Source of the DNA: Candidatus Nanohalarchaeota archaeon
GTDB taxonomy: Archaea; Nanohalarchaeota; Nanosalinia; Nanosalinales; JAFCCC01
DNA length: 64,000 nt
Direction: 5' to 3'
Assembly: GCA_017610385.1 (NCBI GenBank)
Contig: JAFCCC010000001.1
Coordinates: forward strand, 32,001-96,000
Below the pieces are notes generated by a model. The model worked only from the letters and a program-made list of their open reading frames with translations. It had not been told where the DNA came from and made no database searches. Shown piece by piece: positions 7,590 through 35,376 of this stretch (positions are counted from its first letter, which is position 1; the number at the start of each line of letters is the position of its first letter). Both the position numbers and the translations under genes were made by a program.

Positions 7590-7675
7590 GCCTTGGTAGC
7601 TTAGCTGGTAGAGCGCGTGGCTGTTAAAATTTTGCAGTAACCACGAGGTCGCAGGTTCAAGTCCTGCCCAAGGCG
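7590..7675 (+). tRNA. tRNA-Asn(GTT) with 13-nt intron at 37/38 (7627-7639)
   Basis: Acceptor GCCTTGG/CCAAGGC; stem CGTGG/CCACG; central helix CTGT/GCAG with TA|A bulges. Confidence 0.95.
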
Positions 7676-7732
7676 CACTGTTCTTAAAAATAAAACTATT
7701 ACATTTTTATCTCATTGATTTCAATTAGATGT

Positions 7733-13370: not shown

Positions 13371-13508
13371 GCCACAGTGGCTCAATTGGCAGAGCAGCTG
13401 CTTCGTATTGTAATGAGGAGGACACTTATTCCGATAAAATATGAGGACGTGAACACCCCCCGAACAAGAATCAGCAGCAGGTTGTGGGTTCAACTCCCAT
13501 CTGTGGCT
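13371..13508 (+). tRNA. tRNA-Thr(CGT) with 65-nt intron at 37/38 (13408-13472)
   Basis: Acceptor GCCACAG/CTGTGGC + U73; stem GCTGC/GCAGC; loop TT-CGT-A|...|A; relaxed BHB (TTCG/AGAA with one mismatch, TGT/ACA outer helix). Confidence 0.92.
13408..13472 (+). ncRNA. Intron-encoded box C/D guide sRNA
   Basis: C ATGAGGA 13413-19; guide GGACACTTATT; D' CCGA 13431-34; C' ATGAGGA 13441-47; guide CGTGAACACCCC; D CCGA 13460-63; terminal stem TTGT/ACAA. Confidence 0.8.
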
Positions 13509-15607: not shown

Positions 15608-15721
15608 GCGGGGGTAGCCAAGTGGTCAACGGCGATAGGCTCAAGTACTGAATTTGAGATCTGATTTAATGAAGAAACCTATTCCCATAGGGGTTCGTCG
15701 GTTCGAATCCGGCCTCCCGCA
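15608..15721 (+). tRNA. tRNA-Leu(CAA) with 31-nt intron at 37/38 (15646-15676)
   Basis: Acceptor GCGGGGG/CTCCCGC; stem ATAGG/CCTAT; long variable arm; T-loop TTCGAAT. Confidence 0.93.
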
Positions 15722-17112: not shown

Positions 17113-17218
17113 TAGCGAGAGATGGATTTGAATTCGACAGATTTGGCCATGACCAATAATCTTCCATCGACCTTCGGGTTATGAGCCCGACGAGCACTCC
17201 TGACTGCTCCATCTCGCT
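17113..17218 (-). tRNA. Initiator tRNA-Met(CAT) with 31-nt non-canonical intron at 53/54 (17133-17163)
   Basis: A1-U72 acceptor AGCGAGA/TCTCGCT, GGG/CCC anticodon stem; insertion between GATGG and TTCAAAT forms helix CGAT/GTCG with bulges GG|A and AA|T. Confidence 0.93.
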
Positions 17219-17268: not shown

Positions 17269-17970
17269 ATGTTCAAAACTTCGCCTGCTGTTTTAAATTT
17301 AAGTCCTAATCTTTCACGCTGTGTGGGGTTGTGGTTAGCGGAAGGAGATAATAAAACTAAATCAGAAATAACATTTACTAATTCTTGTGCCGATTTAGTT
17401 GACTTTTTTGCTGAGACAATTATTCAGGAATTTGCGTTCAAAGGAAATCCAAGAATATACTGTTATTCTCATGAAAATCTTATGAAACTAAAGAAAATTG
17501 GAATCGCCGATTTGCATCCTCTAAAGAAAATTGCATTCGAACGAATGGTTGAAACTTACAAAGAAATTCATTATCCTGCCCATTTTTTGAAAAATAGAAT
17601 TTGGAAAGATCTTAAAGTACCTCATACATCTCAACAACTTTCGAAAAAATCTGATCGTTCTATTGCGAGAATACAAGATATAGTGATACAGCTTAAGAAA
17701 GATGGTAAAATTAAAGATTTTAGAGTGGAAAGTACAAACTATTGGATTCGGAGTGATCAGAATATGATAATCATCTCCAACACAAAAAAGAAATATCTGG
17801 ATCTATTGGGAGCTGAAGCTCTGTCAATAAAAAAAATATCTTCTCATTTCGAAGTGAGACTGCGTTCTTCGTACAAAATTCTTAAGAGATTAGAACAATT
17901 GAGATTAATTAAAAAAGATAATCATAAATGGAGAAAAGTTCATACAAATAAGAAGGTGATTGTTTTGTGA
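17269..17970 (+). CDS. Stand-alone LAGLIDADG-like protein with C-terminal wHTH, apparently internally truncated
   Basis: VGLWLAEGD..EITFTNS (one LAGLIDADG motif) followed by two HTH-like segments; no second motif seen. Confidence 0.65.
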   Translation: MFKTSPAVLNLSPNLSRCVGLWLAEGDNKTKSEITFTNSCADLVDFFAETIIQEFAFKGNPRIYCYSHENLMKLKKIGIADLHPLKKIAFERMVETYKEIHYPAHFLKNRIWKDLKVPHTSQQLSKKSDRSIARIQDIVIQLKKDGKIKDFRVESTNYWIRSDQNMIIISNTKKKYLDLLGAEALSIKKISSHFEVRLRSSYKILKRLEQLRLIKKDNHKWRKVHTNKKVIVL

Positions 17971-18674
17971 AAGAAATTAAACTAATATTAGGCATCGATG
18001 AGGCGGGCAGATCTTGAAAGTCTCTTGGTTTTCAGGGGCCCAAAGGGCCTGTAATCGGTAGCATGTTCGTAGCAGGGGCAGTCATAGAAGAAAACCGAGA
18101 ATCTGAATTAAAAAAACTGGGAGTAAAAGACTCTAAAATGCTCAAAGAAAAAGATAGAGAAAGAATGGCTGCGGAATTACCCGGAATTCTTAATAAATAC
18201 GCAGTTAAAGAAGTTACAGCTATGCAAATCGATGAATTAATGAAAACAATTAATTTGAATGTTATTGAAATGCAAATGTTCGCTAAAATAATTCAAGAAT
18301 TAAAGCCAGATAAAGTAATAATAGACCTTCCGGAAAATAATGCTGAAAAATTCATCTTGAAAGTAAAAAAATTCATGGATCCAAAACAGTATAAAAATCT
18401 TGAGTTTGTTGCAGAACACAAAGCAGATGAAAATTATCCGATTGTAAGTGCAGCTTCAATTTTAGCGAAGAGTGCAAGAGAAAAACATGTAAAAGATCTT
18501 TATGGGGAATATGGTTATTTCCGAACAGGTTATCCTCATGATGAAGACACAATAAATATGCTTGAAAGGTATGTTAAAGCAAACAAAAAGCTTCCAGAAA
18601 TAGCCAGACATTCATGGAGTACATCTAAACGAATTTTAAAGAAGTTCGCCCAGAAAAAATTAGGGCAATTTTGA
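17967..18674 (+). CDS. rnhB: Ribonuclease HII, split by a 33-nt BHB intron (exon 1 17967-18010, exon 2 18044-18674; 224 aa spliced)
   Basis: Exon 1 MKEIKLILGIDEAG-AG joins A-GGG-CCT to restore DEAGRGPVIG; downstream GVKDSK, EHKAD, VSAASILAK, TGYPHD. Confidence 0.92.
18011..18043 (+). other. Putative pre-mRNA intron with BHB motif
   Basis: Central helix GGGC/GCCC, bulges AG|A and AA|A, 9-bp intron stem TCTTGAAAG/TTTTCAGGG, in-frame TGA at 18015-18017. Confidence 0.85.
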
Positions 18675-29351: not shown

Positions 29352-29897
29352 ATGTCAATTACAGGGACGCTCGCACAAAATAAAGTTAGAGTTACAAAAG
29401 AAATAGATCAGATTCACTCAGAAAAATATTATGGAAAAATAATTTCTGATTCTGGAAAAGATGTATTAGAATTATCTCTAACAGAAACGATGCATCTAGT
29501 CAATAAAGGAGAATTAACATTAAAGGACGGTAGAAAAAAATTAAATAATGAAGTAGTTTACGAGCGATTCTGCGAAATCGATGCAGAATTTCCACAGAAA
29601 TACACAGTTTATGCGGATTTGCGGGAACGAGGATATATTGTAAAAAGTGGTTTCAAATTTGGTACACACTTTAGAGTTTATTCCAGAGGAGTAAACCCTT
29701 ACAAAGAAGGCCAAAAAGAACAAAAAGAACATACTAAATGGGTTGTACATGCAGTTCCTGAAAATTATACATTATCTTATCAAGAAATGTCAAGATCTGT
29801 CCGTTTGGCTCAAAACATTAGAACTAAAATGCTTTGGGCGGTTGTAGATTCGGAAAATGAAGTCACGTACTATGAGATATATCGTTTAAGACCATAG
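29352..29897 (+). CDS. endA: tRNA-intron (splicing) endonuclease
   Basis: LSLTE, VYADLRERGYIVKSGFKFGTHFRVY, catalytic His, C-terminal VVD..VTYY..RP. Confidence 0.95.
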   Translation: MSITGTLAQNKVRVTKEIDQIHSEKYYGKIISDSGKDVLELSLTETMHLVNKGELTLKDGRKKLNNEVVYERFCEIDAEFPQKYTVYADLRERGYIVKSGFKFGTHFRVYSRGVNPYKEGQKEQKEHTKWVVHAVPENYTLSYQEMSRSVRLAQNIRTKMLWAVVDSENEVTYYEIYRLRP

Positions 29898-35126: not shown

Positions 35127-35376
35127 GGGGTTGTAGTTTAATCCGGCAGAATATTCGGCTCCAGATAACAGCTAGCTTAGTTAACATGCTCAACGAGTTG
35201 CGGGCAACTCACTTCACTTCGACGTTTAATTTTGCTTGAATTGGGAATGCATTAATTTCCGATTTAGGAAACTTAACAAGTTTCCGTGAGCTTTTATTTG
35301 AAAAGCTCATCCGAGCGCTCGGACTTTCTGGTTTTGGAGAAACCGAAGGATCTGGGTTCAAATCCCAGCGACCCCA
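35127..35376 (+). tRNA. tRNA-Trp(CCA) with 177-nt intron at 37/38 (35165-35341)
   Basis: Acceptor GGGGTTG/CGACCCC; stem TTCGG/CCGAA; BHB CTCC/GGAG with AG|A and AA|A bulges; T-arm CTGGG-TTCAAAT-CCCAG. Confidence 0.92.

Follow-up and report, generated by a model that had tools for sequence, protein, structure and literature searches.

Is the message for RNase HII in a nanohaloarchaeon interrupted by an intron that the tRNA splicing machinery removes? The question is raised by a stretch of 64,000 nucleotides from a Candidatus Nanohalarchaeota archaeon (hereafter, the window), in which the open reading frame recognized as RNase HII (rnhB) lacks the catalytic motif. An initial annotation, made from the sequence alone, attributed this defect to a 33-nt insertion folding into a bulge-helix-bulge (BHB) structure that would be cut by the splicing endonuclease EndA, and offered either a regulatory or a parasitic role for it.

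The interrupted rnhB gene and the splicing machinery

The gene and its insertion comprise the following features:

17967-18674, + strand: rnhB, RNase HII, interrupted (sequence)
17967..18010, + strand: rnhB exon 1, with a GTG start, 14 codons plus 2 bases and, within the DEAG motif, the first catalytic acidic residues (sequence; PF01351)
18011..18043, + strand: predicted BHB-type intron of 33 nt that holds an in-frame stop (TGA, 18015-18017), the inner stem (18012-18037) and the 3' strand of the central helix (18038-18041) (sequence, fold)
18005..18044, + strand: bulge-helix-bulge motif, GGGC/GCCC, with bulges at 18009-18011 and 18042-18044 and predicted cuts after 18010 and 18043 (fold, covariation)
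18044..18674, + strand: rnhB exon 2, the rest of RNase HII, intact to its TGA stop (sequence, profile match)
17955..17959, + strand: Shine-Dalgarno-like GGTGA with a presumed role, in the last codons of the endonuclease remnant described below, 7 nt before the rnhB GTG (sequence)

Read from GTG 17967, the gene encodes GIDEAG, continues with 33 extra bases and resumes with GPVIG; the unspliced reading meets a stop two codons into the insert, and both the insert (18011-18043) and its TGA (18015-18017) are as initially described. Gene callers choose ATG 18063 as the start of rnhB. The downstream ORF alone matches PF01351 only from model position 15, whereas the read-through protein matches from model position 1. 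Among 35 sliding deletions of 33 nt, DEAGRGPVIG was obtained only with cuts after 18010 or 18011, and only the former obeys the bulge rule (the EndA register), in agreement with the claim that a cut by this rule restores DEAGR-GPVIG.

The central helix pairs GGGC (18005-18008) with GCCC (18038-18041) at 4/4 positions, and its bulges, AG/A and AA/A (the slash marks the predicted cut), are, as had been noted, those of the tRNA-Trp intron in the same window. The intron-side stem is longer than the 9 bp first given, with 11 contiguous pairs when G-U is counted. The exon-side helix, in the strict register, is a single C-G pair, shorter than a strict BHB demands, and the minimum-energy fold prefers a slipped 4-bp exon-side helix with a 5-nt bulge. 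The motif is a relaxed (HBh'-like) BHB, not the strict form; because relaxed forms are recognised members of the class (PMC5829648), only its designation as a strict BHB is weakened. The fold alone barely beats chance (z -1.8; 10/200 shuffles fold as well), and the case for an rnhB intron rests on the restored motif and on comparisons, not on the fold alone. No further copy of the 33-nt intron was found in this genome. A scan for sigma-70 promoters, a model inapplicable to archaea, stayed at chance level.

The window also holds EndA and several intron-bearing tRNA genes:

29352..29897, + strand: EndA splicing endonuclease, a single 181-aa unit with Thr158 at the catalytic Lys position and a 7-residue C-terminal loop insert (only match in the genome)
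17113..17218, - strand: tRNA-Met(CAT), probably the initiator tRNA, whose T arm is interrupted by a 31-nt intron at 17133-17163 (4/4 central pairs, no exon-side pair)
7590-7676, 13371-13508, 15608-15721, 35127-35376: four further tRNA genes with introns (Asn, Thr, Leu, Trp)

The genome carries one intact copy of RtcB, and endA is likewise uninterrupted. Thr158 aligns with the catalytic Lys282 of the ARMAN-2 enzyme, in which alanine at this position abolished cleavage (PMC12397907); the position is occupied by Thr or Ala in 29/29 own-phylum sequences read (Thr here, Ala in the 28 others). Nevertheless, the many tRNA introns in the genome would imply a working EndA despite the Lys replacement. 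The C-terminal loop insert is conserved in EndA of this phylum and appears to be the L3 loop of PMC5829648, which is linked there to disrupted tRNA genes by association only. The tRNA-Met intron, adjacent to the rnhB locus, is an equally relaxed substrate; its gene was missed by ARAGORN and Rfam. In many relatives of family f4 (L100, L102, L104, L113-L115), endA lies directly 3' of rnhB; in this window, rnhB is followed by aspS, and endA is 11 kb away.

No intact second rnhB, which the initial annotation had set against its own reading, was found: the genome, 93.5% complete, gave no RNase HII match besides the interrupted copy and none at all to RNase HI. Elsewhere, a genome with an interrupted rnhB (G072) has a second, uninterrupted RNase HII-family match (G072:C4:278203-278796).

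We also searched the genome for other split genes. A bare BHB scan gave 15,336 matches and was discarded as a finder of mRNA introns, being swamped by chance matches. Requiring a suitable reading frame left 23 candidates; in rnhB alone the downstream frame is closed inside the intron, and the other 22 were rejected with a downstream frame open through the supposed intron. In a tblastn comparison, 1,520 ORFs from 800 of the 957 kb of a relative (G015) were run against the genome, and 433 had a match. Of five places inspected among the matches listed, two were genes with a frameshift and three were normal starts or ends of genes; none had an insert. The frameshifted genes, nuclease-like (G000:C14:28147-28831) and DEAD-box helicase-like (C14:31071-32119) as labelled from reading, reflect decay or assembly error. 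Both cbf5 and rtcB of this genome are uninterrupted. Thus, within the partial coverage of tblastn and the BHB-plus-frame filter, no second split protein gene was found here. The prediction of further mis-annotated split genes held in another respect, namely for truncated rnhB in databases: the 203-aa truncated ORF of the window is on a database record, and ribonuclease HII is the name given to a 204-aa sequence that clusters with the truncated ORF of a relative.

Introns at the same site in other archaea

To the own-phylum comparison, 70 genomes contributed, 67 of them informative (one without a match and two ending before the motif were left out). An insert of 29-33 nt was present exactly at AG/A in 6/67 informative genomes from four families (G000, 33 nt; G026, 30 nt; G049, 33 nt; G019, 29 nt; G042, 32 nt; G066, 32 nt); 48 of the 61 intron-less alleles were read directly, and 13 were judged from the match table. 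A tree built from 54 exon-2 proteins shows the intron alleles dispersed between the intron-less ones. A constraint that united five intron alleles cost 279 log units (AU p ~2e-7, with a program warning that 2,000 replicates do not suffice), and the intron alleles apparently do not form a single clade. Intron-less alleles with an altered motif at the same site (DEAAR, DEARR) were noted at L115 (G015) and L178.

The second phylum, that of a Woesearchaeota record, was represented by an even sample of 150 genomes, 144 of them informative; excluded were the centre genome, two genomes without a match, three with unlisted weak matches and one with a contig end. The intron was present in 15/144 informative genomes, all 15 of which were read; the 129 intron-less ones were read (43) or taken from the table (86). 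A DNA pattern search in metagenome contigs returned at least 120 matches, 80 of which were fetched; 57 were real rnhB introns, and 23 were dropped because they were not rnhB. Altogether, 108 introns, dereplicated at 85%, were used for the sequence tests. Records with the endonuclease locus described below come from several DPANN groups and Thaumarchaeota and, under unchecked labels, also from Thermoplasmata and Methanosarcinales. The cut is not always at the same base: of 65 endonuclease-adjacent introns, 54 are at AG/A (site 0), six one base earlier and five two bases later; in the two shifted registers (-1 and +2), the 4-bp helix is displaced together with the cut. With differing inserts at the same spot in >100 independent records, and with 4 contigs from two sources (possibly one sample) that carry an identical truncated call of 203 aa, the probability of an assembly artefact is negligible.

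Covariation was assessed on 50 dereplicated site-0 introns (the endonuclease-anchored ones plus two loci), a set unconstrained by the DNA pattern. The outer pair of the central helix was formed in 47/50 introns, compared to a shuffle mean of 20.8 and maximum of 33, and the inner pair in 50/50 (mean 25.2, maximum 37). Pairing entered into the choice of register, which is mildly circular; most introns already had 4/4 pairs when the cut was placed by rule. The compensatory changes that the initial annotation had suggested seeking in relatives do occur. The inner hairpin had a z below -2 in 99/108 introns.

The introns are also uniformly hostile to translation. The frame is shifted by 63/108, and all in-frame introns contain a stop (45/45, a count that still includes related clusters), compared to 27.5 expected from base shuffling and to 24/45 and 19/45 in the other two frames; every one of the 108 blocks translation within 24 codons. 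Short eukaryotic introns follow a stop-codon rule, of which the stop in every in-frame rnhB intron would be an archaeal parallel. Between intron-bearing genes, dN/dS ranged from 0.04 to 0.20 (median 0.10, maximum 0.20; 27 non-independent pairs), showing that interrupted rnhB genes are under purifying selection. The DSK motif in exon 2 is present in 78/78 loci, and introns without an endonuclease persist over long distances (dS near 1).

Could ribosomes pass the insert instead? Ribosomal bypass of the T4 gene 60 or byp type needs matching take-off and landing codons. A stop close behind an Arg codon, together with a hairpin, resembles bypass signals, but the two codons match in only 8/98 site-0 introns, the window intron not among them. 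Read-through of the stop would add 11 residues to the active-site motif, and it offers no remedy for the 63 frameshifting cases. Moreover, the covarying exon-intron helix fits the EndA geometry in three registers, so that either process in place of splicing is very improbable. Equally hard to credit is a dead gene, in which the hairpin insertion inactivated a dispensable rnhB. Strains with rnhB deleted exist in Haloferax and Thermococcus (PMC12639248), and therefore the need for the enzyme is by itself no proof of splicing; however, exon 2 is intact with DSK throughout, dN/dS is ~0.1 between interrupted alleles, exon-intron pairs covary, and there is no second rnhB copy here.

Given the inserts at the same site, the covarying helix, the universal block to translation, the purifying selection and the matches to EndA and RtcB, the 33-nt insert is very probably an ORF-less BHB intron in rnhB pre-mRNA that is spliced by EndA and RtcB. 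In this respect, comparison supports the original interpretation.

The LAGLIDADG endonuclease gene upstream of rnhB

Immediately upstream of rnhB lies a feature that the initial annotation did not mention:

17269..17970, + strand: remnant of a free-standing LAGLIDADG endonuclease gene, 233 aa (homologues, profile, model)

The end of this ORF and the start of rnhB share four bases (GTGA). Full-length members of this family (~338 aa) have two LAGLIDADG motifs and two winged helices; 323 homologues were found, and no member was found in viral contigs. PF14528 scores above the cut-off in 3/4 relatives' copies, the glutamates of both motifs are invariant in 52 sequences, and the full-length model (pLDDT 92.6) matches I-DmoI, bI3 maturase, WhiA and I-Tsp061I. 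The full-length relatives thus have the two motifs, the acidic residues and the fold of a LAGLIDADG nuclease, whereas the window copy lacks an intact nuclease domain: it keeps the first motif and both winged helices and has lost ~110-115 aa, including the second motif, in frame. In its model the N-terminal part has no strands (pLDDT 41-66 per block), and the winged helices are confident. Activity as a single-motif dimeric nuclease is disfavoured, the nuclease part modelling poorly, and the window copy is most likely a dead nuclease.

Decay is frequent, with 14/75 endonuclease loci with enough flank failing the full-length, two-motif test. Decayed copies next to rnhB often keep the C-terminal winged-helix part (L334, L338, L228, L273 and 17269-17970 of the window); the copy in G066 lost its last winged helix instead. 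Other LAGLIDADG-like ORFs, several of them decayed, flank tRNA-Met with or without an rnhB intron (L100, L102, L105, L112, L113, L115), and tRNA-Met looks interrupted in some relatives.

The homologues in G019, G042, G049 and G066 each lie directly before an interrupted rnhB. In the own phylum, the endonuclease gene is beside rnhB in 5/6 intron genomes and in 0/61 intron-less ones (Fisher p 6e-7, overstated because kin are not independent); G026 has an intron without the endonuclease, and G031 a single weak endonuclease match, on another contig. The corresponding values for the second phylum, counting adjacent endonucleases or C-terminal remnants, are 4/15 and 0/129 (Fisher p 8e-5, overstated for the same reason). 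Among the endonuclease-anchored loci from GTDB, rnhB is directly downstream in 78/79 (the remaining locus ends before rnhB), 65 with an intron and 13 without; the introns at four of these loci are the ones found in own-phylum relatives, so that the sets overlap. The endonuclease is full-length at 11 of the 13/78 intron-less loci. Where a pattern-found intron was preceded by at least 500 nt of sequence, the endonuclease was there in only 9/43 cases, and therefore introns may predate it. The presence of the endonuclease is patchy within genera. The association of gene and intron is strong yet not obligate.

There was no indication of immunity by codon change: AGA occurs in 4/13 intron-less endonuclease loci and in 18/43 controls, which is no difference. 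Non-canonical motifs were seen in 11/13 of these loci, compared to 12/65 and 11/43, a contrast that is suggestive and confounded by lineage.

Between G049 and its congener G009, similarity ends at tRNA-Met and restarts at exon 2, and therefore the foreign unit would consist of the endonuclease, exon 1 and the intron; in relatives, too, the endonuclease cassette has its left boundary at tRNA-Met. The scattered alleles and the cassette edges fit horizontal co-transfer. The identities of endonuclease and RNase HII correlate with a rho of 0.43, and thus much of the inheritance is vertical.

Alternatively, the intron might be spliced while the LAGLIDADG-winged-helix neighbour is a domesticated, WhiA-like regulator or cuts elsewhere, the pairing reflecting hitch-hiking at a busy locus beside tRNA-Met. 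WhiA is indeed among the top fold matches, and winged helices are kept in the remnants here and in G107 and G143; invariant motif glutamates, patchiness within genera and frequent decay speak against this alternative. It would agree with the other LAGLIDADG ORFs crowding the region in intron-less relatives, with the 13/78 loci without an intron and with the 34/43 introns without the endonuclease gene. However, the intron rate beside the gene (65/78) is far above the background of 15/144, and introns in three separate registers adjoin the same endonuclease family. We consider this alternative unlikely, although it carries more weight than any other rival.

Proposed spread of the intron and comparison with known systems

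The arrangement matches that of collaborative homing: the nuclease gene stands free, next to an intron that has no ORF, and the two tend to occur together. In the pathway that we propose, the LAGLIDADG endonuclease gene at the rnhB start would travel with the intron. Its product would make a break within the conserved DEAGR-GP codons of alleles that lack the intron, a target placed inside rnhB because the upstream genes differ among hosts and rnhB is constant. Repair from the donor by gene conversion would copy endonuclease, exon 1 and intron together, and the carrier would be protected, its cut site being split by the intron. Later, the endonuclease would decay and the intron would stay, because only exact deletion restores rnhB; the window would represent such a late stage, with the nuclease domain deleted and the intron intact. 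At the RNA level, EndA would cut after 18010 and 18043 and RtcB would join the exons, giving full RNase HII, and any unspliced rnhB message would abort two codons into the intron.

That the intron spread by collaborative homing with the endonuclease and is orphaned here is, in our judgement, fairly likely. With good confidence, we regard EndA/RtcB splicing of an intron spread in this way, and here orphaned, as the best explanation as a whole. Of the two roles initially offered for the intron, the adjacent homing-endonuclease-like gene favours the parasitic one, and the regulatory one is rated lower. A regulatory switch tying the supply of RNase HII to the tRNA-splicing capacity would agree with the block imposed within 24 codons by every intron and with persistence without the endonuclease at dS near 1. 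Yet the intron is missing from 61/67 relatives, congeners included, its sequence and length vary freely, and selection against an inactive enzyme of full length would account for the stop rule just as well. Retention for this purpose is improbable, although a switch can be compatible with splicing and homing as proposed here.

More tentatively, the endonuclease break may have been the birthplace of these introns. On this suggestion, which we hold to be possible but somewhat doubtful, BHB introns had at least three independent origins, all within three bases of a single cut site (registers -1, 0 and +2), were favoured as antidotes to the selfish nuclease, rode with it across archaeal phyla and outlived it as orphans, all of them selected to stop unspliced translation. 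If so, there would be a testable mechanism for the entry of protein-spliced introns into protein-coding genes. In any case, the link to a specific nuclease family makes intron origin and spread testable in vitro. With a second gene family interrupted in about a tenth of the genomes of two DPANN phylum samples, mRNA splicing in archaea would have to be counted as common and not as a curiosity, and the catalytic N-terminus would be missing from many RNase HII records. A search of the openly accessible literature found no description of an rnhB intron or of this endonuclease family; a prior prediction in subscription journals or supplements is possible.

In the sources cited here, cbf5 is the only archaeal coding sequence named with a confirmed BHB intron. 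Its pre-mRNA introns of 16-44 bp occur in Desulfurococcales and Sulfolobales, their splicing has been shown (Yokobori 2009, PMC2738675), and they are traced to one ancient gain followed by losses; the same paper cites a book chapter for predicted introns in other genes. The introns of cbf5 and rnhB (20-73 nt) are alike in being short and ORF-less, with a BHB fold, in a catalytic motif, in some cases in frame, and mis-annotated. In contrast to those of cbf5, the rnhB introns, whose splicing is predicted, are in another gene and other lineages, have a scattered distribution, fall into three registers and are linked to a neighbouring endonuclease gene. The cbf5 introns were guessed to be deletion derivatives of ORF-bearing introns (PMC2738675), whereas the rnhB-associated nuclease lies outside the intron.

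Collaborative homing has been described in phages, where a free-standing endonuclease gene is found beside an ORF-less group I intron, in T3/T7-like phages and in cyanophage psbA (PMC10448857, PMC2988022). As in phages, the nuclease gene is outside, adjoining an intron-bearing conserved gene, the intron is proposed to be at the cut site, and the two are co-inherited. The rnhB system differs in residing on a cellular chromosome, in a BHB intron that is protein-spliced and not a ribozyme, and in a LAGLIDADG nuclease with two winged helices, whose cleavage is predicted.

I-DmoI and I-Tsp061I are encoded inside rRNA introns. The rnhB-associated family shares with them the double-motif LAGLIDADG fold and the association with BHB-type introns, but differs in being free-standing, in its two C-terminal winged helices and in its location at a protein gene. 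More generally, rRNA introns carry LAGLIDADG-type ORFs (PMC2738675). Finally, a BHB intron has been shown experimentally in the 5' UTR of the HVO_1309 mRNA of Haloferax volcanii (PMC7714728). Like HVO_1309, rnhB would be an mRNA substrate of the splicing endonuclease, but the HVO_1309 intron is in an untranslated region and breaks no reading frame.
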